A stretch of DNA of 64,000 nucleotides, taken from NCBI GenBank assembly GCA_036785375.1, contig JAWMAR010000255.1, positions 1,550,001-1,614,000 of the forward strand, written 5' to 3'. This DNA comes from Leucoraja ocellata (taxonomy: Eukaryota). How positions within the stretch are numbered: the first letter of the stretch is position 1; the number at the start of each line of letters is the position of its first letter. The notes beneath the pieces were generated by a model, which saw only the letters and a list, made by a program, of their open reading frames with translations, did no database searches and was not told the DNA's origin. Positions 679 to 56,600 of the stretch are shown here, piece after piece. The position numbers and the translations under genes were made by a program.

Positions 679-864
679 TTACACATACCACTCATTGAAG
701 TTGGAAGAGATGCCGACGTTGGTATGCACGGCAGTAGAGGCGGGGGATAAATTATTGCTGTTTGGTGGTTCGGCAGACGGTGAGACCAAGACTGGTGGAG
801 TGGACGATTCATAGCCAGAGCTGGCTGCTGGTGAGGACTCAGAACCTTGAGATGCTTCATGGAC
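679..864 (-). CDS. ZIC2: Zic2 exon 3 (copy A), C-terminus [24 protein letters not shown]...SSNFNEWYV*
   Basis: Acceptor tgcAG at 865-866 and stop TAA at 679-681. [17 protein letters not shown] and the terminal NFNEWYV match Zic2. Confidence 0.96.
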
Positions 865-884
865 CTGCATGAGAGAAACAGTCA

Positions 885-1325
<441 letters not shown>

Positions 1326-3073
1326 TCATATTATCAATCATCATCATATTATGATCTGCCCTGACATTTTGTAATTGCAGGCAAGATATAACTAAAATAT
1401 TTCAAATGAAACATCCCCAATTGGAAAGACTGTGCGGAAATGTGCTTGACAAAAATGATTCGCCTTTGGGTTTGAATGATGTTATTATGCGGCCACTTGG
1501 TTTACATTGGCCGGGTTCATTTCTCGAAATGTGAAGCCACGATTAGAAGGTTCCCAGCTGATTGTAACGTTGGACCTCGCACTAACGCAGTGGCAGACTG
1601 GAGATAAATAATCTATTTGGACTTTCAGAATCAGCATGTGTATTAAATGCATCTACTCGAATGAATTTTTGAAATTAAATATACCAAATAAAATGGTCAG
1701 TGGTTTTATCAACCAATATATCCCTCCCCTCCAAGTCACCGCTGTGTAGAAACGTGTTTTTAATAAAGTCCTAACCCATTTGCTTATGTTTAAGGGGAAT
1801 ACACTTTCTTTTTTTTATAAATAGTCATTGCAACTAGGGATCGAAAATCACCCTTCTGAACTTTTGTTTATCGACAATTCCTGGGCGGCGGAACCAAGAG
1901 GTGTGAATCACTCAGAAGTATTGCTAAACGCGGAGGAACAATGCAACATTACATTTATTAGCATTTAAATGGTTTTCGAGAGATATGCAAACCGCCTTGA
2001 AATCGGAAGGATTGCTACTCCAAGGAAATAAATTTCCCAGTTGAAATCCAAGCTAAAGACACGTCTAGCACATATGATTAACCGTACACTTGAGCGAACA
2101 ATAGGCCCACATCCTTCCACCACTCTGGATCAAGTCATTATAGAGCATGTTTATTTTAAATAACTTATTAATTAATTACCGCTTTTGTTTATCTCTCTCT
2201 CCCTTTTGAAGAACCAGCGATTTAGAAAAATAAAAACATGATTGAAAATAATGAATGGCGCGCGATGGAGAATGGAAGAATTCCTCAGCTGCCTCGTTTC
2301 ACACACAACAACTTACTCTTTCTCTGTCCTTACATTGCATGTTGACCTATATTCAAAGTTTATGGTGCAAACACAGGCCACTACTGATGACATAATTCCA
2401 TACGCTGGAGAGAAATATTATGCAATGCGACATAATTTGCAAGTCATACATGCCGTCTCCAGAAGACTTTTCTGCTTCCTACCCGTTATATCTTTATGCA
2501 TTTTAAATCTGTGACCCAAGGCAAAAACCTTAATCTTAATCTTAAAATGTTTTCATGTGTTTTTTTATAGGCTAGGGACCTGTAATTCATTCGCTTTCTG
2601 GATGAAATGCACTGCCCAGAATTTGTGAAATGTTGTTTTCCTGAGAATCAGAACAGCAGGAATTTTACTCATGTTAGATTTTTTTAAACATAAGCGATTG
2701 AAGTGGTTTACTTTTAAAACGTGTCAGATATTTTACGTCGGTTATTATTTTACTGAACTTTCACAATTAAAAAAAAATCTGGAATTAAAACTATTGCTCG
2801 CATTGTTATAGGTTGCAGCAGCGAGATTTTTCAAATGGTTTAGAAAGTTCAAAAAATAATAATTTAAAATTTCGAAACGCTATCAATAAAAAAAGATATA
2901 TTTTTTGGTAACAGACACATTATGATAGTGATTCTGTGAGCGGTTGAAATATCCGCTGAGAAGAGAATAGCCTGACTGGTGGGTAGCGAGGGAGGGACTG
3001 TCTCCTCCCGCGTTAACGTGGAGCGCGGAGCCGGCGTTTGTGGTGGGAGAGAGACTGAAAGTTTGGAACTTAC

Positions 3074-4082
3074 CTGTGTGGGTGCGTTTGTGGATTTTTA
3101 AGTTCTCTGACCTGGCGAAAACTTTGCCGCAGCCGGGAAACGGGCAGGGGAACGGCTTCTCGCCGGTGTGAACCCTGATGTGATTCACCAATTTGTATTT
3201 GGCTTTGAAAGGCTTGCCTTCCCGGACGCACTCTTCCCAGAAGCAGATGTGGTTGGTCTGCTCCGGACCTCCGACATGCTCCACCGAAACGTGGGTGACC
3301 AACTCGTGCATAGTGCTGAAGGTTTTGTTGCAGGACTTTTTGGGGTTGGCCAGTTGCTCGGGATCGACCCACTTACAGATGAGTTCCTGCTTGATGGGTT
3401 GCCGCATGTATCGGAAGAAGGCTCCTGCACCGCGATGCGTTGCCATATTCATACCCATGTTCATATTCATCTGTCCATAATTGTGGTGGTGGTGGTGCAC
3501 CTGGGCAGCCGAGAAGGGGTCAGTCCTGGGACACTGGTCCGAGCGCCCGAATACTTCACCGGCCAGCCCCAAGCGCATTTGGCCGTTCAGGACGTGCGCG
3601 TTTGGAGACGGATGCGATGCTCCTTGTTCGTGGATGCCGGGGAACAGAATATGTGCCGAGGTGTCCGAATGTGGGTGATGTAAGCCCCCTGGGCTCGGTC
3701 CGAAGATACCGTGCTGGCCGGAGCCCGGGCTCGAGTCGGTGTAGCCGCGGCTGCGGAAGATAAAGTCCCGCGTGGAGTTGAAAGCGGCGCCCGAGTAGGA
3801 GCCGACATGAGCGGCGTGGGGAGCTAAAGCGGACGGGTATCCCGGGCCGGCCGCCGCTTGTGCGCTGAAAGCCGAGGTCTGGGCAGCGGACGGATCGTGG
3901 TGGACGCCGGCATTCAGCTTGAAGGCGCCCATGTGCGCCGAGTCGACAAAGGTGTTCTGAGACATGGCCAGATCCCGGTCGGACATGTCGGCGGTGGCGT
4001 GGTGGTGGTGGTGGTGGTGGTGGTGCCTCGCGAAGGTGCCCACCCCGAGGGTGGGGAACTGCGGTCCCGCATCCAGCAGCAT
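3074..4082 (-). CDS. ZIC2: Zic2 exon 1 (copy A): N-terminus, ZOC motif, ZF-NC and zinc fingers 1-3
   Basis: Starts [22 protein letters not shown] and contains [20 protein letters not shown] and [19 protein letters not shown]. Phase-1 donor G|GTAAG at 3073. Spliced CDS is 1359 nt (452 aa). Confidence 0.97.
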
Positions 4083-4619
4083 TCCCCTGAAAGCGGGGAG
4101 CAAACAAACAAATCTCTTACTCCACAACCCACCCCCAGCAAACACACACACACGCACACACACACGCACACACACACACACACGCACAGGTCAGTAGCAG
4201 CAGCAACTTCAGAGACGCCTTGATGTTGTCAGTGTTTACGGTGGTTTTCTAAAGGAATCAGAACGCACCAGTCCATGAATCACAAATCCAGCCCAACGAT
4301 TCGCCCCTTCCCAACTGCCTTCTTTTTTTTTTGGCAAGTAAAAAAAAGCGTCGAGAAAAACGATCGAGCCAAATTATCGCGTGCAACTTTTTTTGATGTC
4401 CTTGAAACAGTTTGTTTTTATTGCGATCACATTGAAGTTTGTTTTCTTCTGTGCTAAGAATTTCCCACGGAGAAAACGCATTTGAACGCTCTTGCTGTCT
4501 GTTTCTCTGTTTCTCTCTCTCTCTGTCTCTCTCTCCCTCTCTCTCTCTGTCGGCAGATGCGTTGTTGCCAGTGATAGCGATAATCAGAATGGCAGATAAA
4601 TAAGGAGTAGAGATAAGAG

Positions 4620-25929: not shown

Positions 25930-27597
25930 AGTTAGAACAACATAACATAGGATCATGCTCAGCTCACAATGGATGTGCCAAACTTGATGCCAGGAATATC
26001 TAATTTCATCTGTCTGCACATGATTCATATCCCTCAAATCTTTGCATACACATGTGCCTATCAATAAGCCTCTTAAATGCCACAATCATAACTGCCTCCA
26101 GTACAACCCCAGATGGGCATTCCAGACACCCACCACCCTCTTTGTAAAATAATCTGCTACCCACATCTCCTTTAAAGTTTGCCCCACATGAAAGGAATAG
26201 ATCAGGTAGATGCACAGAGTCTCTTGCCCAGAGCAACATAAATCGAGAACCAAAGGACATAAGTTTAAAGTGAGGGGGGAAAGATTTAAATGGAACCCGA
26301 GGAGTAACTTTTTCCACACAAAGAGTGGTGGGTGTGGAATTAACTGCTGGAGGAGATAGTTGAGGCGGGTACTATTGCTATGTTTAAGAAACATTTAGAC
26401 GGTTTAGAGGGATATGGGCAAAATGCAGGCAGGTAGGACTATGGTAAATGGGACATGTTGGCTTGTGTGGGGAAGATGGGCCGAAGGGTCTGTTTCCATG
26501 CTAGACTCTATGACTCAACTTAAAGCTATGCTCTCTTGTCTTTGACATTTCCATCCAGGGAAAAAGGCTCTAACTGTCTACGTGTCTATGCCTCCCATAA
26601 TTTTATAATAATTCTATCACGTTCTTCTCCAATCTCTGGTGTGCCAGAGAAAACAATCAAAGTCTGTCCAACCTTTCCGTGTGGCTAATACCCCCTAATC
26701 CAAGCAGCATTCTGGTAAACCTTTTCTGCATCCTCTCTAAAGACACCACATGCTTTCAGTAATGGGGCAGCCAGAACTGCACACAACGTTTCAAATGCGC
26801 CTCAGCAAAGTCTTAAAAAGCTGCATCACGACTTCATGATTCTCAATGAGGCCAAGAATACCACAGGCCTTTTTTTAATCACAATGCCTACATGTATTGC
26901 CACTCTGGGGGCTATTGATTTGGACTCATAAATCGCTCTGAACCAATGTGGATAAGGGTCTTTCCATTAACTGTATACCTCCCCAGTACATTCCAACTCC
27001 CAAAGTGAAACACCTCACACTCGCTGTGATCAAACTCCATCTGCAATTCTCCACCCATTTCTGTAGCTGATCTATATCGAGGAGTATACGTTGAGACTTC
27101 TTCACTGTCTGCAATTACAACAACCTCGCTGTCATCTGCAAATTTACCAGCCAGCCCATCTACATTTATGGCCAAGTCATTTACATATATCACAAACAAC
27201 AGAGGTCCCAGCACAGTTCTCTGCAGTAGTCCAATAGTCAGACTGCCAGCCAGAATAGCATTCTTCCACTACAATCTTCTGCCTTTTATCATTAATCCAG
27301 TTCTCATTCCATTATGACTAAGTCTTGTTAATCCCGAGTATCTTAATCTTCTGGATAAGCCCACCATGGGTGACTTTATCAAATGTCTTACTAAAATCCA
27401 CATTGACTACATCCACTGCCTTACCCTCATCAATCACCTTCGTCACCTTCTCAAAAAACCTGATCAAGTTAGTAAGACACGACCTGCCATGTACAAAGCT
27501 ATGCTGACTATGCCTAATTAGCCCATTCTCTTCCAAATGGAAGTAAAACCTACCCCAAAGAATCCTCTCCGATAATTTCTCTACCAATGAGGTGAGG
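25930..27597 (-). mobile_element. Degenerate CR1 LINE (RT region to 3' end), with an opposite-strand CR1 3' fragment at about 26240-26520
   Basis: ORF pieces SQHSFVHGRSCLTNLIRFFEKVTKVIDEGKAVDVVNVDFSKTFDKVTH, LGPLLFVIYVNDL...KFADD and FTKRVVGVWN. Confidence 0.85.
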
Positions 27598-27988
27598 CTC
27601 CTCACCTCATTGGTAGAGAAATTATCGGAGGAGGATTCTTGGGTAGATTCTCTCTACTTCCTTTTGGAACGAGACACTGGCTAAATTAGTCTACGTCAGA
27701 CAAGCTTTATATTACAACTGTTCCAAAAATAAAACTGTCACTTGATCTTAAAGTACATCAAAAATGAGATGTCGAGAGGTTATGAAAACCCTAATATTTT
27801 TGATAGTAAAGAATAATCTCTGATAAACAAATAATTTTGAGGCTCCTTGACAGGATCATTTAAATTTCAGTGAAAAAACTGTTCCCTCCTTTGCACCACA
27901 AGCTTAAGCTCCCAAGCCTTATGTTTTCTAATGTCTACTCTTGTTTTACGTTATAAAAAAAAACCAGAAGTACAACCACTAATCAATT

Positions 27989-28126
27989 CTTCTTCTTGCG
28001 TATGGCGTGCACAGCCTAAAGTTGTAGGACAACTTGTTCTATTTGATCTTATTTGATTGTGCAAACCGGGTTGATTGCATTTGTCGAAACAGGGCTGACC
28101 ACGTGAAGGTTGCAATCTCCCACCCC
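27989..28126 (-). mobile_element. Short non-autonomous retroelement (Vingi/Ingi-type SINE or internally deleted derivative) with a 5' HDV-like ribozyme and a (GAA)n tail
   Basis: Flanked by the direct repeat (cc)actaatcaatt at 27976-27988 and 28125-28137. The 3' end reads ccatacgcaagaagaag. Confidence 0.8.
28073..28126 (-). ncRNA. Minimal HDV-like self-cleaving ribozyme fold
   Basis: GGGGUGG GA GAUUGCA ACC UUCACGU GGU CAGCCCU G UUUCGA C AAA UGCAAUC. P1 has 7 positions with a G1-U wobble and one G-A mismatch, P2 is a perfect 7 bp, P3 is ACC/GGU, L3 is 7 nt and J4/2 is CAAA. Confidence 0.75.
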
Positions 28127-28232
28127 ACTAATCAATTAAATAATATCCACAATTAAATTGAAACGGTGAACTTCAGAATAACTAATTTTGAGCTATATTG
28201 GCATTGGGAACACCCAGTTATTAAACTTTACA

Positions 28233-28436
28233 CAAAAATGCTGGAGAAACTCAGCTGGTGCAGCAGCATTTATGGAGTGAAGGAAATAGGCGACGTTTCG
28301 GGCCGAAACCCTTCTCTGGTTTCGGCCTGAAACGTCGCCTATTTCCTTCGCTCCATAGATGCTGCTGCACCCACTGAGTTTCTCCAGCATTTTTGTGTAC
28401 CTTCGATCTTCCAGCATCTGCAGTTCCTTCTTGAAC
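28233..28436 (+). mobile_element. Penelope-like inverted-repeat element with an unpaired 3' tail
   Basis: Inverted arms of about 85 bp meet at the hammerhead remnant, followed by a ~35-nt tail. 13-bp TSD attaaactttaca at 28220-28232 and 28437-28449. Confidence 0.8.
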
Positions 28437-34935: not shown

Positions 34936-35106
34936 CATAGATACATAGAAAATAGGTGCAGGAGTAGGCCATTCGAGCCTGCACCGCCATTCAATATGAT
35001 CATGGCTGATCATCCAACTCAGTACCCCGTACCTGCCTTCTCTCCATACCCCCTGATCCCTTTAGCCACAAGGGCCACATCTAACTCCCTCTTAAATATA
35101 GCCAAT
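34936..35106 (-). mobile_element. CR1 LINE 3' end (continues at 38285)
   Basis: Reverse complement of the CR1 3' UTR at 31690-31862, with tail ctatgtatctatg. Confidence 0.9.
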
Positions 35107-37307
35107 TCTTCTTCGAGTCCGTTGCAATCTCAGATGTCGTTCTGCCAGTATCTGATGCAGGTCACAGCTGGTCGGGTCGGTTCAGCCAGGTCCTGGGGGC
35201 TGCACTGGGGGGCATTGTCACACTCCAGTAGGTGGGACATTGTCTGTTCTGCTCCACAGCTGCATGTGTCTTATGCCTGGTAGTTCCATGCTTTCATAAG
35301 TGCTTTGCACCTCCCCTGCTCCACTCGTAATCAATCTGTTGAGGGTCTTCCAGGTTGGCCATGAGAGGTCGTGCCCGCTGGCGAGGCATTCAGTCAGAGT
35401 GATTCCTCTCTCCATCCAGTCGTGGGCTCGTGTGTTGAGCTGGTTCCATTCATCTTTCCAGATGTTGGTCCTTGCTGTTTCTTTGGTTGTCTGGAGAGGT
35501 GGGACTGTCTGCAAGAAACTGGCTCTAGATTTCAGTCGGGGTGGAGGTGCTGTGTGTCCGTGCAGGGGGTGCCTGGTATCGATCTCCTGTGCTCTCCGCT
35601 CGTCTTGGGCGACGATGGATCATCTGATATGGGGGGGGGGGGGGCAATACCAGCTAGGGCATAGAGGCATGGGACTGGCGTTGTCTTTATGCATCCCGTG
35701 ATAATGCGGCAGGTGTCGTTCAGGGCTGTGTCAACCAGTTTGGTGTGGTGGGAGCGGCTCCAGCTTGAGCACGCGTATTCAGCTGTGGAGAAGCACAGGG
35801 CTAGGGCAGTTGCACGGATGGTTGGTGGATCAGCGCCCCACTTTGAGTTTAACAGTTTGCGCAGGATGTTGTTGCGAGTGTTGACCTTGGCTTTGGTGTT
35901 CTGAAGGTGGGTTTTGAAAGAGAGTGTCCTGTCGAGTGTGACTCCGAGGTACACAGGGTGGAAGTGGTTGGAGAGTTTGTGGCCATCCCATGAGACGCTC
36001 AGTTGTTTTCCTGCATCTCGATTTTTAAGATGGAAGCTGCATAGTTGGGTTTTTGATGGGTTGGGTTTCAGGTGGTTGTTATTGTAGTAGGTTGTCATCT
36101 CTTGGAGGGCGTTTACCAGGACAGACTCGATCTTCTGGAAGTTCTCCTGTTGGGTGGTGATGCAGAGGTCATCAGCATAGATGAAGCGGCGGCATTGTGG
36201 GGGAAGTGGTTGGTTGTTGGTGTAGATGTTGAAGAGGAGGGGGGCCAGTACGCTGCCTTGTGGTAGGCCATTCTTTTGGGTTTTCCATTTGCTCTTCTTG
36301 TCGTTTAGTTGAACGAAGAAGCGCCTGTTGTTGAGAAGGCTTTTGATGACTTGGCACAGGTCGAGGTCACCAGTCATGTCAAAACGTTTCCTGATCATGG
36401 TGCGGTGCTGGACAGTGTCGTAGGCAGCGGTGAGATCTATGAAAGCTGCTCCGGTGATGAGTTTGCACTCAAAACCGTCCTCAATGTGTTGGGTGAGGTT
36501 CAGTAGCTGCCCAGCACAGGAGCGGCCAGGGCAGAAGCCAGCTTGATCTTTAGTAAGCTTGGAGTCTATAAGTGGCATAAGGCGTTGGAGTAGTAGCCTC
36601 TCGTAGAGCTTGTAGGTGATGCAGAGGAGGGAAATAGGTCTGTAGCTCTTTGGGGATGATGGGTCCTTTCCAGGTTTGGGAATTGCGCCAGTCTTGGCCT
36701 TTCTCCATGCAGGTGGGGTTGTTTTCTGTGCCATGCATGAGTTCAGCATGGCTAGGAACCAGGTCTTTGCTTTATGTCCAAGGTGCTGTATAATTTCCGT
36801 CAGTATATCATCGATTCCTGCTGCTTTCCCAGGTTTCAGCATGCTCATTGCAGCTTCCAGTTCTTCTAGGTCGAAGGGCTTGGTGAGGGCGCTGGCTGGT
36901 TGTAGGCGGTCTGTTACCGCTGTCCGGCGGTATTCTCCTGTGGGTCTGCACCGATTTTGGCTACGACCGTTTGCCACCAGCTGTGCTGCAACTGAGTTTG
37001 CTGTGACTGTTGTGAGCGTGGGCGGTGTGGTATGGTCTTCACCGAGGCGGTGGATTGTGGCCAATGCCTTCCTGCTGTTATTGGTCATGTTGGTGTTTTC
37101 TATCAACTCCTTCCAGACTTGCCATCGGTCCTCCCCGACTGTGTTTAACAGGATCTCTCCGAGTTCCATGGTGGTGGAGGAGAAAGGGTCCTCGTGATAT
37201 GCCCTGTGGTAGGCTATCAGTAGATCGCTGGATGTTTCCGACAGCCCGGGGATGTACTCGGTCTGGCATCCTCTTGGTATATGTCGCCTGGCTGATCTTT
37301 TCAGCAG

Positions 37308-37524
37308 GTACACAAAATTACTGGAGAAACTCAGCGGGTGCAGCAGCATCTATGGAGCGAAGGAAATAGGCAACGTTTCGGGCCGAAACCCTTCAGTCTG
37401 AAGAAGGGTTTCGGCCCGAAACGTCGCCTATTTTCTTCGCTCCATAGATGCTGCTGCACCCGCTGAGTTTCTCCAGTAATTTTGTGTACCTTCGATCTTC
37501 CAGCATCTGCAGTTCCTTCTTGAC
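37308..37524 (+). mobile_element. Penelope-like inverted-repeat element inserted into the Vingi ORF
   Basis: Arms at about 37307-37393 and 37402-37490, tail at 37491-37523. TSD cttttcagcag at 37297-37307 and 37525-37535. Confidence 0.85.
37396..37428 (+). ncRNA. Minimal type I hammerhead ribozyme motif
   Basis: gt CUGAAGA a GGG uuucgg CCC GAAA C GUC gc. Both core boxes are present, with a 3-bp stem II, a palindromic ACGU stem III and a GUC triplet ending at 37425. Confidence 0.65.
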
Positions 37525-38284
37525 CTTTTCAGCAGTTCTGTGAACATGGTATAGTTGTTGGGGTGTGATGGAATACTGGGGATGGAGTCTTCGATCTCCT
37601 GTTGGAATGACAGCTAGTCGGCCTTCCGCAGATTGAACCTTCTGCGGAAGAGGACAGTTGTTGTTTGGAGAGCGGATCGGATGGTTATGGTGATTGGCCG
37701 GTGTTGCGTATGGGGGATAGGGTCCAGGACCTCTTTCACAGCTCTGGATGATAGTCCGCTGCTCACATAAACAAGGTCTGGGTTATGTCCTCGTTTCCAT
37801 CTGGCATGTGGAAAGATTTTGGCAGTTTGGCGTCATGGATCAGGGTCAGGTGTTTCGACTCAAGCCAGGTTTTGACTTCATCTCCATCTTGATTGTTCAC
37901 TTCATAGCCCCACAATGAGCTATGGGCATTGAAGTCCCCAATGCTAATGTGGTATTTCCTCTTGCATCTGTCTGGCAGTTCAGAGTGGAGGAACGGACTT
38001 TGGGGGGGTTTATACACTGATGTGACAGAGATGTTTGGGAGGGCAACTGTGATGGTTTCCATTTGCCCTTCGGTGGTGTGGGTGCAGACCTCTTCGATCG
38101 CAAGGTTTGGTCTGCTGAATACAGCTGACCCATACTGTCTGTGTCGGATCTCGACCACCAGCTTCATTCCAGGGATGGCTGGTCGGTGTTGTGTAGGGCC
38201 GGTGTGGGTTTCCTGCATGCACACTATGTCGAAGCGTTTGGCCGCTGTCGCTAGTATGTCTGCCTTGCATCTGGATAAGCCTTC

Positions 38285-38777
38285 AATATAACCAATGAAC
38301 TGGCCTCAACTACCTTTTGTGGCAGAGAGTTCCAGAGATTCACCACTCTCTGTGTGAAAATTTTTTTTCTCATCTCGGTCTTAAAGGATTTCCCCTCTAT
38401 CCTTAAGCTGTGACCGCTTGTCCTGGACTTCCCCAACATCGGGAACAATCTTCCTGCATCTAGCCTGTCCAACCCCTTAAGAATTTTGTAAGTTTCTATA
38501 AGATCCCCCCTCAATCTCCTAAATTCTAGCGAGTACAAGCCGAGTCTATCCAGTCTTTCTTCATATGAAAGTCCTGACATCCCAGGAATCAGTCTGGTGA
38601 ACCTTCTCTGCACTCCCTCTATGGCAATAATGTCCATCCTCAGATTTGGAGACCAAAACTGTACGCAATACTCCAGGTGTGGTCTCACCAAGACCCTGTA
38701 CAACTGCAGTAGAACCTCCCTGCTCCTATACTCAAATCCTTTTGCTATGAATTCTAACATACCATTCACTTTCTTCA
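38285..38777 (-). mobile_element. CR1 LINE body (5'-truncated), contiguous with 34936-35106
   Basis: [22 protein letters not shown]...[13 protein letters not shown]...FTQRVVNLWNSLP. Confidence 0.92.
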
Positions 38778-50236: not shown

Positions 50237-50422
50237 TTACACATACCACTCATTGAAGTTGGAAGAGATGCCGACGTTGGTATGCACGGCAGTAGAGGCG
50301 GGGGATAAATTATTGCTGTTTGGTGGTTCGGCAGACGGTGAGACCAAGACTGGTGGAGTGGACGATTCATAGCCAGAGCTGGCTGCTGGTGAGGACTCAG
50401 AACCTTGAGATGCTTCATGGAC
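50237..50422 (-). CDS. ZIC2: Zic2 exon 3 (copy B)
   Basis: Same translation and splice site as 679-864. Confidence 0.95.
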
Positions 50423-50442
50423 CTGCATGAGAGAAACAGTCA

Positions 50443-50958
<516 letters not shown>

Positions 50959-52631
50959 TCAAATGAAACATCCCCAATTGGAAAGACTGTGCGGAAATGT
51001 GCTTGACAAAAATGATTCGCCTTTGGGTTTGAATGATGTTATTATGCGGCCACTTGGTTTACATTGGCCGGGTTCATTTCTCGAAATGTGAAGCCACGAT
51101 TAGAAGGTTCCCAGCTGATTGTAACGTTGGACCTCGCACTAACGCAGTGGCAGACTGGAGATAAATAATCTATTTGGACTTTCAGAATGAGCATGTGTAC
51201 TAAATGCATCTACTCGAATGAATTTTTGAAATTAAATATACCAAATAAAATGGTCAGTGGTTTTATCAACCAATATATCCCTCCCTTCTAAGTCACCGCT
51301 GTGTAGAAACGTGTTTTTAATAAAGTCCTAACCCATTTGCTTATGTTTAAGGGGAATACACTTTCTTTTTTTTTTAAATAGTCATTGCAACTAGGGATCG
51401 AAAATCACCCTTCTGAACTTTTGTTTATCGACAATTCCTGGGCGGCGGAACCAAGAGGTGTGAATCACTCAGAAGTATTGCTAAACGCGGAGGAACAATG
51501 CAACATTACATTTATTAGCATTTAAATGGTTTTCGAGAGATATGCAAACCGCCTTGAAATCGGAAGGATTGCTACTCCAAGGAAATAAATTTCCCAGTTG
51601 AAATCCAAGCTAAAGACACGTCTAGCACATATGATTAACCGTACACTTGAGCGAACAATAGGCCCACATCCTTCCACCACTCTGGATCAAGTCATTATAG
51701 AGCATGTTTATTTTAAATAACTTATTAATTAATTACCGCTTTTGTTTATCTCTCTCTCCCTTTTGAAGAACCAGCGATTTAGAAAAATAAAAACATGATT
51801 GAAAATAATGAATGGCGCGCGATGGAGAATGGAAGAATTCCTCAGCTGCCTCGTTTCACACACAACAACTTACTCTTTCTCTGTCCTTACATTGCATGTT
51901 GACCTATATTCAAAGTTTATGGTGCAAACACAGGCCACTACTGATGACATAATTCCATACGCTGGAGAGAAATATTATGCAATGCGACATAATTTGCAAG
52001 TCATACATGCCGTCTCCAGAAGACTTTTCTGCTTCCTACCCGTTATATCTTTATGCATTTTAAATCTGTGACCCAAGGCAAAAACCTTAATCTTAATCTT
52101 AAAATGTTTTCATGTGTTTTTTTTATAGGCTAGGGACCTGTAATTCATTCGCTTTCTGGATGAAATGCACTGCCCAGAATTTGTGAAATGTTGTTTTCCT
52201 GAGAATCAGAACAGCAGGAATTTTACTCATGTTAGATTTTTTTAAACATAAGCGATTGAAGTGGTTTACTTTTAAAACGTGTCAGATATTTTACGTCGGT
52301 TATTATTTTACTGAACTTTCACAATTAAAAAAAAATCTGGAATTAAAACTATTGCTCGCATTGTTATAGGTTGCAGCAGCGAGATTTTTCAAATGGTTTA
52401 GAAAGTTCAAAAAATAATAATTTAAAATTTCGAAACGCTATCAATAAAAAAATATATATTTTTCGGTAACAGACACATTATGGTAGTGATTCTGTGAGCG
52501 GTTGAAATATCCGCTGAGAAGAGAATAGCCTGACTGGTGGGTAGCGAGGGAGGGACTGTCTCCTCCCGCGTTAACGTGGAGCGCGGAGCCGGCGTTTGTG
52601 GTGGGAGAGAGACTGAAAGTTTGGAACTTAC

Positions 52632-53640
52632 CTGTGTGGGTGCGTTTGTGGATTTTTAAGTTCTCTGACCTGGCGAAAACTTTGCCGCAGCCGGGAAACG
52701 GGCAGGGGAACGGCTTCTCGCCGGTGTGAACCCTGATGTGATTCACCAATTTGTATTTGGCTTTGAAAGGCTTGCCTTCCCGGACGCACTCTTCCCAGAA
52801 GCAGATGTGGTTGGTCTGCTCCGGACCTCCGACATGCTCCACCGAAACGTGGGTGACCAACTCGTGCATAGTGCTGAAGGTTTTGTTGCAGGACTTTTTG
52901 GGGTTGGCCAGTTGCTCGGGATCGACCCACTTACAGATGAGTTCCTGCTTGATGGGTTGCCGCATGTATCGGAAGAAGGCTCCTGCACCGCGATGCGTTG
53001 CCATATTCATACCCATGTTCATATTCATCTGTCCATAATTGTGGTGGTGGTGGTGCACCTGGGCAGCCGAGAAGGGGTCAGTCCTGGGACACTGGTCCGA
53101 GCGCCCGAATACTTCACCGGCCAGCCCCAAGCGCATTTGGCCGTTCAGGACGTGCGCGTTTGGAGACGGATGCGATGCTCCTTGTTCGTGGATGCCGGGG
53201 AACAGAATATGTGCCGAGGTGTCCGAATGTGGGTGATGTAAGCCCCCTGGGCTCGGTCCGAAGATACCGTGCTGGCCGGAGCCCGGGCTCGAGTCGGTGT
53301 AGCCGCGGCTGCGGAAGATAAAGTCCCGCGTGGAGTTGAAAGCGGCGCCCGAGTAGGAGCCGACATGAGCGGCGTGGGGAGCTAAAGCGGACGGGTATCC
53401 CGGGCCGGCCGCCGCTTGTGCGCTGAAAGCCGAGGTCTGGGCAGCGGACGGGTCGTGGTGGACGCCGGCATTCAGCTTGAAGGCGCCCATGTGCGCCGAG
53501 TCGACAAAGGTGTTCTGAGACATGGCCAGATCCCGGTCGGACATGTCGGCGGTGGCGTGGTGGTGGTGGTGGTGGTGGTGGTGCCTCGCGAAGGTGCCCA
53601 CCCCGAGGGTGGGGAACTGCGGTCCCGCATCCAGCAGCAT
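52632..53640 (-). CDS. ZIC2: Zic2 exon 1 (copy B)
   Basis: Protein identical to copy A. One synonymous change seen (Asp GAT/GAC, about 3894 vs 53452). Confidence 0.95.
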
Positions 53641-56600
53641 TCCCCTGAAAGCGGGGAGCAAACAAACAAATCTCTTACTCCACAACCCACCCCTAGCAAA
53701 CACACACACAAACACACACAAACACACACACACGCACACACACGCACAGGTCAGTAGCAGCAGCAACTTCAGAGACGCCTTGATGTTGTCAGTGTTTACG
53801 GTGGTTTTCTAAAGGAATCAGAACGCACCAGTCCATGAATCACAAATCCAGCCCAACGATTCGCCCCTTCCCAACTGCCTTCTTTTTTTTTGGCAAGTAA
53901 AAAAAAGCTTCGAGAAAAACGATCGAGCCAAATTATCGCGTGCAACTTTTTTGATGTCCTTGAAACAGTTTGTTTTTATTGCGATCACATTGAAGTTTGT
54001 TTTCTTCTGTGCTAAGAATTTCCCACGGAGAAAACGCATTTGAACGCTCTTGCTGTCTGTTTCTCTGTTTCTCTCTCTCTCTGTCTCTCTCTCCCTCTCT
54101 CTCTCTGTCGGCAGATGCGTTGTTGCCAGTGATAGCGATAATCAGAATGGCAGATAAATAAGGAGTAGAGATAAGAGAATCCTGAGGATAAATGCGTGGG
54201 GAGGGGTTAGGGGGGGAGGGGGGCCTTAAGTTGGTTCCGTGCCTGTCATATGATGCAGAGATCGGCTGCTGGCTGGAGTGACGGCGCTTCTCCCAACACC
54301 CCTTTTAAACAGGACAGCGGCCACTCTATAATGGCTTTTCATTGGACAACTCCGCCTCATCCATTCCAGGTAGCTTGCTCCAAACGCGTCGCCATTTTTC
54401 ATTAATTACGCCTACTTTGATTTGTGTTTTCTCTCTCTCTCTCGCTCTCTCTCTCCGAGATCGGCCATTACTGCACCACTTCTGTCCCCCGCCAATACAA
54501 CCGGTGAAGCACCAGCCTCGCGTTTTTCACTGCATAGCAATAAAAAGTTAATCGAAATCTGTTGTAATGACTTGTGAGCAAATTGTGGGAGTTGGGGCGG
54601 CGGGGAGAGGGCGTGGGGGCGAAACCAATGTCCACAGTATTATACGCGTTTCATACCCCCCTAGTGCATAACTGGTGCCTTTTACATGTAAATATGTAAC
54701 ATGTTATAAATCAGACAACTTTTTCAGGAACTTGTCGATTGAAAGGTTTGGGGGCATTACAACAGCGAGACGGACAAATCCGCTTCTGATCAGATTCTAG
54801 TTGTGAGACTCGGCTTGTGAGCCAAGGCAACGGTCTAATCCGATTCGACACCTATTAAATTGCACACCATATTATTTTTTTTCAGTGAAATACGTTCCAC
54901 GATTTAAGTTCGATTTATTTTACGTTCGATTTTGGAGGGAGCGGATTGTGAAATGAAATGGGAGCAGAAATGAAACTCCCCATCGATGCACGGGCAGTGT
55001 ATTTACGTCTTGTCACGGGCGGAACACGCCATGATTTCTGTTTGGGAAATCGAGGCCAGTGTAGTGGAGGAAGACTCTGCATTCAAGGGCAAGTCTGGAA
55101 TGAGAAAACGAAAACCAAAGCAACATAACGGAAACAGCCCCCACCACCCCCTCCTCTTTCAACCCTGCTCCACCTCTCCTCTCGTCCCCCTAAACCACAC
55201 AGTTAATTAAAAAAAATCCAATGTTACGCTTTTTACTGACCTTTTATTGTTCAGAAACGCCAATACTATAATATGCCATGAACAAATATATAAACTGATG
55301 CAACACCGGAAGGATTTTGGGGAAAAAATGAATACTGCAATGAATTTAATGAATGTGCAAATAATGTATGGCATCCTGCTTGTTTGCAACAGAGCTTCTT
55401 ACAGCTTTTTTTTAGTGGTCTGGGTTTTTTTTTAACAAAGAACTTTTGGTGTTGGTTTAATTCACTAATTCCTGTCTAAAGCGGCGCAGCTTCGTGCTCA
55501 CCGCTATTCTTTCACTCCTCCAGGGCTGGACTCTGCAGGGACTACAGGAGCCGATCCAAGTTCAAAGTCACGTTTGCCGACTTTATTATTTCTCTGCAAA
55601 CCGCCCCTTCCACCCAAAAAAAACCCTCTACCCTTGGTCACTGAGGTTGCGAGAGAGAGAGAGAGAGAGAGAGAGATACAGACTGACAGAGAAAGAGACA
55701 GAGACAGAGACAGAGAGGGAAATGCAGAAATTCAATTGCATTTCGGTACCATGGTAGCAGAATGCAGACAGAAGCTGGAGGTGGACAGTGAGAAGGGCCA
55801 GCGGCGGCTAATTTATCAATTTAATGGTACTTCAACAGGTTTCAATAGGTAAGCAATGAACTTACTATATGAGAATGGTGCTGTAAGGCTACGGAGAATG
55901 TCTTTATCCACTTAGCCAAATCCAGAATCGGCTCTCGCCTTTATAGCGACAGCACTTCTTTTGTTACCGAGCAGGCTTGTTTTAATAACTGCCAACAGTG
56001 AAGCCCATACAATATCCTCTTTCATCCATATCAACCTTGTCACATATTTCAATCTATTTTTGAATAAAGTTAGTGAAAGTGCGCCGGAGAACTCAACGCT
56101 GTATTCATGACAAGTAAATGTGATCGTTTTTTTTTTGTTTGGGCGGGGGGAGGGGGGGGGGGGGGGGGGGGCGATTAGGATCTGGGTTGGGATGTAGAGA
56201 GAACTTTTACAGCAATCAACGCTCGACAATGTTCCCGTTTCAGCTACTGCTTAGAGGATTCTGTACGGTCGTTTGTTTTGCGTTTTGTTAGTTATGAAAA
56301 TCCCTTGAGCACAACAGAAATATATTTTCTAAAAATATAGTTCTTCGACAGCATTTAAATGGTCGGCAAGACAGAACGCATTGGGATCGGGTGGGTGCGG
56401 GGAGAAATAGTCACCTTTCCTTCTTATTCATTGTTTTGAATAAACAATTAAACCTTCTAGGTTATTGGGTGCAGTGAATAACCGAATGACATACATTTTT
56501 TTAAACCTTTATTTTGATTCCGGCGATTACGTTAGGGAATATATATATATATATGTAATGCTATGGAATGATAATATATATATCATTCCATAGCCTTTAT

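Follow-up and report, generated by a model that had tools for sequence, protein, structure and literature searches.

A 138-nt bipartite derivative of a Vingi retrotransposon in Leucoraja ocellata with a predicted minimal HDV-like ribozyme at its 5′ end

Results and Discussion

The element and its surroundings

The stretch of DNA analysed here, referred to as the window, comprises 64,000 nucleotides of the forward strand of contig JAWMAR010000255.1 (positions 1,550,001 to 1,614,000) in the Leucoraja ocellata assembly GCA_036785375.1. It contains a short retroelement on the minus strand and, at some distance, a broken LINE. The features are as follows.

27989..28126, minus strand: whole bipartite non-autonomous Vingi element, 138 nt, a family copy flanked by target-site duplications
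28050..28126, minus strand: first 77 nt, corresponding to the start of the parent Vingi family, whose decayed copies show 82-90% identity
28073..28126, minus strand: predicted minimal HDV-like ribozyme fold, 54 nt (P1, P2, P3, L3 and a one-pair P1.1, without a real P4)
28058..28067, minus strand: 5′ arm of a predicted 5′-3′ helix, one mismatch in the window copy
28033..28049, minus strand: 17-nt linker without a convincing match in six parent copies
27989..28032, minus strand: last 44 nt, consisting of the end of the parent ORF, a very short 3′ UTR and the (GAA)n tail, 87-97% identity
28004-28013, minus strand: 3′ arm of the predicted 5′-3′ helix, within the last 44 nt
27976..27988, no strand: target-site duplication on the 3′ side of the element
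28125..28137, no strand: target-site duplication on the 5′ side, overlapping the first G's of the element by 2 nt
35103..38290, minus strand: neighbouring Vingi-like LINE of another family, 5′-truncated and broken, with endonuclease and reverse transcriptase pieces

In an earlier reading of this DNA made from the sequence alone, a retroelement with an HDV-like ribozyme at its start was placed between direct repeats. The segments named for it along the minus strand from 28126 to 27989 read exactly as claimed, and the repeats were found as a 13-bp pair at 27976-27988 and 28125-28137. Because the last two G of the repeat overlap the first G of the element, the 5′ boundary of this single copy is ambiguous by 2 nt, whereas the alignment of the family sets it at G1. 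The G at 28126, before which cleavage had been predicted, thus coincides with the 5′ boundary as fixed by the ends of the family. Regarding the 17-nt linker, the highest-scoring local matches obtained in six parent copies did not exceed the reverse-strand controls. The folding of the 3′ part of the window copy was without significance (z = -1.6).

Two long hairpin repeats flank the element at 28235-28392 and 27551-27645, with microRNA-model matches below threshold only; they are probably non-autonomous repeats of the DNA-transposon type. An Rfam search of the surroundings returned hairpin-type microRNA matches to other nearby repeats and nothing relevant. The sequence of the window also recurs in duplicate, the period being about 49-50 kb; the element has an identical copy 49,137 bases upstream (L002), owing either to recent duplication or to an assembly haplotype. 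Two C2H2 zinc-finger genes in head-to-head arrangement, which we take to be of the Zic type, are seen at 679-4190 and 50237-53808.

Predicted fold of the 5′ head

The first 54 nt of the window copy are predicted to form a minimal HDV-like ribozyme, with the cut site located 5′ of G 28126. The helices of the nested double pseudoknot are all present. P1 (28126-28120 with 28097-28091) is 7 bp long and opens with a G-U wobble at G1; the single P1 mismatch that had been reported for this copy is located at 28096, so that six of the seven positions pair here, compared with seven of seven in the commonest form of the family. P2 (28117-28111 with 28079-28073) pairs at all seven positions, and P3 (28110-28108 with 28100-28098) contributes 3 bp. 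The core is also that of an HDV-like ribozyme: L3 (28107-28101, 7 nt) carries the equivalents of U20, C22 and G25, a G follows P1, and the C at the catalytic position, 28083, is the first base of J4/2 and is followed by A. P1.1 has one canonical pair, the second being a non-canonical U-U. Only 7 nt separate P1 from the catalytic C, in the short element as in its parent, versus 20-45 nt in eight other heads described below, and the head is for this reason regarded as a minimal form without P4.

A structure descriptor, composed with the fold already in view, gave a single match on both strands of the window, namely the head of the element (score 16.2). Of 20 dinucleotide shuffles, 18 yielded no match and the remaining ones scored 12.0 and 13.9. 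The descriptor also failed to detect 11 of the 19 loci named for it. Comparison with curated HDV covariance models, suggested as a check in the sequence-only reading, did not bear the fold out, as no ribozyme family in Rfam was matched by the short element or by four intact copies. Minimal HDV-like ribozymes without P4 are reported to be active in vitro, and in the searches of the same source nearly 99% of them were confined to phages (PMC10879173). A non-canonical second P1.1 pair is described as allowing fast cleavage (PMC13635239). As far as the literature was checked, a 54-nt P4-less HDV-like head of this kind is new, the form being described mainly from phages in the available text.

Copies, 5′ ends and age of the short family

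A DNA search of the genome returned 1,603 candidates, of which the 40 scored were 96-100% identical. The exact 38-nt 3′ stretch occurs at 2,190 places, one exact 54-nt head at 424 places and a 34-place core pattern at no fewer than 7,021 places, with 0 matches for the reversed-pattern control of each; the expectation of many copies throughout the genome is therefore confirmed. Since the core pattern is seen in 23 of 70 copies picked by the 3′ stretch, about 20,000 places in the assembly are suggested. The assembly carries duplicated haplotypes (10 of the 70 sampled copies were near-identical partners), so approximately 10^4 copies per genome is the safer reading. The pattern counts are also inflated by an older subfamily copy (L330, G000 C1:19261300-19268300), which is carried along passively within a roughly 2-kb tandem repeat.

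The 5′ ends were analysed in 70 of the first 71 listed matches to the 3′ stretch, taken in genome order. Sixty-four of these copies, though picked by their 3′ end, align from positions 1-4, in agreement with the shared 5′ ends at G1 that had been anticipated, and the remaining 6 are truncated or rearranged. A duplication was detected in 50 of the 64 copies that reach the 5′ start and in none of the other 14; its end lies between -2 and +3 relative to G1 in 46 of these copies and farther off in 4. The short family has accordingly been amplified as a unit with target-site duplications. As a separate observation, T is enriched just before G1 (27 of 43 scored copies), similarly in reads and contigs, and is sometimes an extra base outside the duplication; it is perhaps a non-templated base that primes the second strand.

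For the estimation of age, 54 copies were retained after removal of the 6 truncated and 10 duplicate copies. Their median divergence from the column mode over positions 1-86 is 5.8%, with changes clustered at CpG sites, and all 17 pairs together with the core bases are kept in 17 of the 54 independent copies. No covariation was found within these 54 copies, the variation being mostly decay of the CpG type. The divergence, the CpG decay and the proportion of intact copies indicate a family old enough for most copies to have been damaged. Most present copies, that in the window included, are probably dead or impaired.

Parent family and class of the element

A protein search with the endonuclease of the neighbouring LINE led to other families, and 2 of the 20 loci fetched (L106 and L107) end in the 3′ sequence of the short element. 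Thirty further loci of the family to which these two belong show its head. The head was found in 15 of 20 longer parent regions, and in 4 of the 20 both ends are present in the right order. In L210, L211 and L212, duplications surround a reverse-transcriptase-coding body, which is about 2.8 kb long in L211 and L212, themselves a duplicate pair. Sequence comparison resolves the short element into 77 nt from the very start of this parent, a 17-nt linker and 44 nt from the parent's very end. Behind G1 the P1 of the parent is fully Watson-Crick, and most short copies carry one U-G pair there. The parent family lies at a median of 5.7% from its mode (30 copies), compared with 5.8% for the short element, from which it appears that the two spread at the same time.

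The element thus has both ends in common with an autonomous LINE and no coding middle, and its class is that of a bipartite non-autonomous LINE of the SIDE type rather than a SINE. The SINE label given in the sequence-only reading is not retained, because the head derives from the 5′ end of the parent LINE and not from tRNA, 5S or 7SL RNA. Neither an A nor a B box of polymerase III was found in the short element by simple pattern, and it gave no Rfam match to tRNA, 5S or 7SL. Regarding the clade, the best matches of both the parent and the neighbour are proteins of 1,010-1,050 aa with an endonuclease and a reverse transcriptase and without RNase H. One ORF with an apurinic endonuclease and a reverse transcriptase, no RNase H and a length of about 2.8-3.1 kb were found. 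Judged by protein match, both families fit Vingi as described in the relevant part of PMC13708176.

HDV-like heads across Vingi-like families

Eight Vingi-like families of the genome and one metagenome element start with the same topology as the short element. In a hand parse of these nine and the short element, which was fitted to the structure, 163 of 170 cells of P1, P2 and P3 pair. In a MAFFT alignment of the first 37-38 nt, which keeps one row misaligned by one base, 96 of the 100 cells of P1 and P3 are paired and 24 double changes occur; none of 500 shuffles reached as high a value, and slid partners paired at 39-60%. The covariation asked for in the earlier reading was therefore found across Vingi families and not inside the short family, and at the level of sequence the fold is supported by it. 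As far as the literature was checked, these eight families with HDV-like heads and compensatory changes are new: no ribozyme was placed in Vingi in the available text on Vingi and ribozymes, whose earlier papers may already contain cases of the Vingi type.

In 80 metagenome loci the descriptor gave three matches with C at the catalytic place, representing one element in three records, versus 4, 2 and 2 matches with U, G and A at that place. When 15 near-full-length metagenome loci were displayed, 6 HDV-like heads were recognized by eye, three of them with a 6-bp P1 (metagenome loci considered for HDV-like heads include L320, L306, L304 and L319); the remaining loci showed no 5′ end or no canonical fold. 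In general, Vingi-like families with an intact 5′ end mostly open with an HDV-like fold whose helices are specific to the family, as observed at L049/L051 (the neighbour's family), L091-L104, L109/L232, L233, L236/L241, L246/L248, L240 and L090.

Two rearranged forms were also observed. In L233, L237, L245 and many small contigs, a truncated Vingi-like unit of about 1.7-1.8 kb, consisting of a ribozyme-like head, the endonuclease and the start of the reverse transcriptase, is arranged head to tail in the manner of a satellite. In L116, L120, L133, L135, L138, L380 and L433, a Vingi-like 5′ head is inverted beside a 3′ end, an arrangement that presumably resembles twin-priming inversions.

A predicted helix between the two ends

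The sequence that immediately follows P2 is complementary to the sequence immediately preceding the tail. In the commonest short form, found in 20 of 54 copies, 10 perfect pairs join the two ends; the parent has 8 pairs, a second family 9 and the neighbour's family 7 + 5, the sequences being unrelated. The idea of an end-to-end helix was formed on the first three families, and the others were tested afterwards. With 30-nt windows and shuffles, four further families of the genome gave p values of 0.003, 0.028, 0.056, which is borderline, and 0.55, which fails, and two metagenome elements gave 0.001 and 0.039. When the ends of these six families were permuted, the cognate pairing ranked 2 of 720, and over all nine families none of 100,000 permutations was as good; in 3 of the 9 the arms of the helix were taken from different copies. 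An old family with CPEB3-like heads, described below, gave a mixed result, with p values of 0.013-0.45 over seven pairings and the arms mostly from different copies. On these grounds a helix joining the 5′ UTR to the 3′ UTR is predicted in most families, and such a helix is new as far as the literature was checked.

RNA evidence and proposed mechanism

No RNA run was among the sequencing runs listed for the sequence. The RNA data consist of one raw poly(A) run from the same study as the DNA sample, of which about 6% was read; three contig runs were analysed beside it. An intact copy was covered by 703 poly(A) reads in both orientations, and 263 of them continue upstream of the 5′ boundary into unrelated sequence, from which it follows that uncut read-through RNA exists. 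The family therefore sits inside longer transcripts, many of which are uncut at G1. The 703 reads show no pile-up of molecule starts; the library is of unestablished strandedness, most copies are damaged, and an excised RNA of 138 nt would be missed in such a run.

The ends shared with a full-length parent, the target-site duplications, the thousands of copies, the starts at G1 and an age equal to that of the parent are features of an element that, in our judgement, is probably an internally deleted Vingi derivative, whose predicted minimal ribozyme likely cuts at base 1 and which the parent's protein likely copied. Internal deletion of a Vingi would have left only its two ends. The HDV-like head would then release the RNA from longer transcripts by cutting precisely at base 1, and the protein of the parent family would copy the excised RNA into new sites in trans by target-primed reverse transcription. 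The helix behind the ribozyme and before the tail would hold the two ends together and would offer a reason why both ends and little else were kept.

Fixed 5′ ends would equally be expected from an internal promoter. The first 77 nt may combine an RNA polymerase II promoter with the ribozyme, so that the element would not be promoterless, a reading which we regard as a minority possibility of some weight. A double role as promoter and ribozyme is described for the initial 77 nt of L1Tc and NARTc, which belong to the sister clade (PMC3383444), polymerase II transcription of bipartite LINEs was expected by Kojima 2018 (PMC5786205), and the short element retains 23 nt of the parent 5′ UTR past the ribozyme. 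However, the predicted end-to-end helix accounts for 10 of these 23 nt, no more than 77 nt are available in all, and starts do not pile up at G1 in the one RNA run, although libraries of this type show starts poorly.

The uncut read-through RNA, the reduction of P4 and the single canonical pair of P1.1 would also suit a vestige of the ancestral Vingi ribozyme that has lost the ability to cut and is left with the role of protecting the 5′ end or binding protein there; the fold itself is reported to protect the template RNA of R2 (PMC13708176). We find this improbable, more so than a promoter in the head, as all core positions and the three helices are kept in both parent and derivative, and the reported behaviour of P4-less ribozymes (PMC10879173) and of a non-canonical second P1.1 pair (PMC13635239) is compatible with cleavage.

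The claim that Vingi proteins mobilise the element stands as regards dependence on a Vingi and falls as regards the neighbouring one as partner, since it is a different family that matches at both ends. That the element is a SINE moved by the neighbour's family is highly improbable: the neighbour does end in (GAA)n as stated in the sequence-only reading, a tail found on both, but neither end of the short element is similar to any of 29 loci of its family, the ages differ (1.4% versus 5.8%), and no A or B box was found by simple pattern. The neighbour, into which a repeat is inserted near 37330-37490, was likewise rejected as the parent on its 5′ head, 3′ end and age. The sequence that precedes its tail bears no relation to the short element, the head of full-length copies in its family is not the same, and the median divergence from the mode (29 copies) is about four times below that of the short element. 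The proposed comparison with the termini of full-length Vingi thus gave different ends for this family at the 29 loci.

Relation to known systems

The architecture of a ribozyme plus a tail is already known, and the element taken alone is an expected member of its class. The NARTc/RIME/SIDER elements of trypanosomatids likewise consist of 77 nt of the 5′ end and the 3′ end of an Ingi-group LINE, with an HDV-like ribozyme that cuts before base 1 and duplications of 11-12 nt (PMC3383444, PMC4035085). NARTc differs in its length of 263 nt, versus 138 nt here, and in the P4 helix of its ribozyme; its ribozyme activity and promoter function are demonstrated in these sources, whereas the present element is known from sequence and belongs to an animal host and the RNase H-less Vingi group. 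The R2 SIDEs of Drosophila, with proven ribozymes, follow the same plan, in which a ribozyme and a 3′ end are left by internal deletion, mobilisation occurs in trans and the middle is unrelated (PMC3414825). According to that source they are specific to an rDNA site, 529 nt long in the described case and low in copy number, in contrast to the dispersed, approximately 10^4 copies found here. The bipartite derivatives of hedgehog Vingi-1_EE agree with the present element in both class and clade (PMC5786205).

The minimal HDV-like and theta ribozymes likewise have no P4 domain and have the catalytic C first in J4/2, but they come from metagenomes, nearly 99% from phages next to tRNAs, while the fold here is placed at the head of an animal retroelement (PMC10879173). 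Such minimal forms are described in the available text of that paper without a determined origin and function; if the present interpretation is true, a natural P4-less HDV-like ribozyme would have a clear job in an animal. For Vingi, a clade that has come into use for RNA-based gene insertion, the element would furthermore provide a natural template of 138 nt. In the portion available of a 2026 review of gene-insertion platforms, ribozymes are mentioned for R2 only, at all 6 places (PMC13708176). Self-cleavage in the 5′ UTR and a helix between the ends could be tested directly as design rules for Vingi.

A possible link to the CPEB3 ribozyme

The mammalian CPEB3 ribozyme (RF00622) belongs to the same fold class as the head studied here. 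It is single-copy and intronic in mammals, and its model does not match the 54-nt head of the short element itself; two sister Vingi-like heads do exceed the cut-off of 35, with 61.2 bits (one of 6 scanned loci) and 55.6 bits (one of 12). Throughout the genome, 56 of 59 scored places were above the RF00622 cut-off. Most of the first 30 belong to one Vingi-like family with an ORF downstream, which agrees with the model consensus at 34 of 40 positions and shows compensatory changes. A metagenome element agrees at 35 of 37 CPEB3 consensus positions up to the end of P1. The closest heads, both matching RF00622, belong to the old Vingi-like family (L397, L398, L380, L381, L384 and L386, corresponding to G000 C104, C234, C128, C394, C725 and C220) and are located as follows.

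L397:3486-3556, minus strand: head of old CPEB3-like family, identical to the mammalian consensus at 55 of 62 positions counted by eye, both P4 strands included
L398:3479-3557, minus strand: head of old CPEB3-like family, identical to the mammalian CPEB3 consensus at 55 of 67 positions counted by eye

L398 and its duplicate are elements of about 250 nt with a decayed duplication, a C-terminal stretch of the Vingi type and a tail. Their 3′ end is common to copies that run upstream into reverse-transcriptase sequence, and 23 of 25 loci with it match Vingi-like proteins on the same strand. No full-length copy of this family was recovered, and the head is linked to the reverse transcriptase via the shared 3′ end. 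A pattern search for further heads gave 3 places, all already known.

In the available text of PMC8233481 the CPEB3 ribozyme is said not to be found outside mammals, and for this reason to lack outgroups; the words "origin" and "transpos" are absent from that text, and no source of the ribozyme is named in that of PMC10919898. Structure searches did find CPEB3-related sequences in non-mammals, and their spread by retrotransposition was proposed (PMC8256844). The same paper gives 21 of 27 core bases in common between R2 and HDV, which indicates that a shared core by itself need not reflect close descent. Agreement in P2 and P4 as well argues for a descent of CPEB3 from Vingi heads, and the old Vingi-like family is, as judged from its sequence, a possible source lineage. 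A human LINE, X12_LINE, has been classed as Vingi (PMC5753468). The widest interpretation, to which we assign an even chance, is that an HDV-like 5′ ribozyme and an end-clasping helix would characterize the Vingi clade, with the 138-nt element as the minimum, and that the mammalian CPEB3 ribozyme would be a domesticated Vingi 5′ end whose near relatives lie decayed in this genome. An old Vingi-like head matching the CPEB3 consensus at up to 55 of 62 positions, P4 included, is new as far as the literature was checked. Heads that match even in this freely variable stem make the origin of CPEB3 testable.

Two further families were observed beside these. L396 (G000 C70:2758061-2758162) and L394 represent a second family of short elements, about 160 nt long, in which a CPEB3-like start is combined with a (GAA)n tail and a duplication; it is likely another bipartite element. 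The other consists of 75-nt matches to the CPEB3 model with a short P4 (L355, L360, L364, L366, L388-L393 and L399), one copy of which precedes reverse-transcriptase-like sequence.
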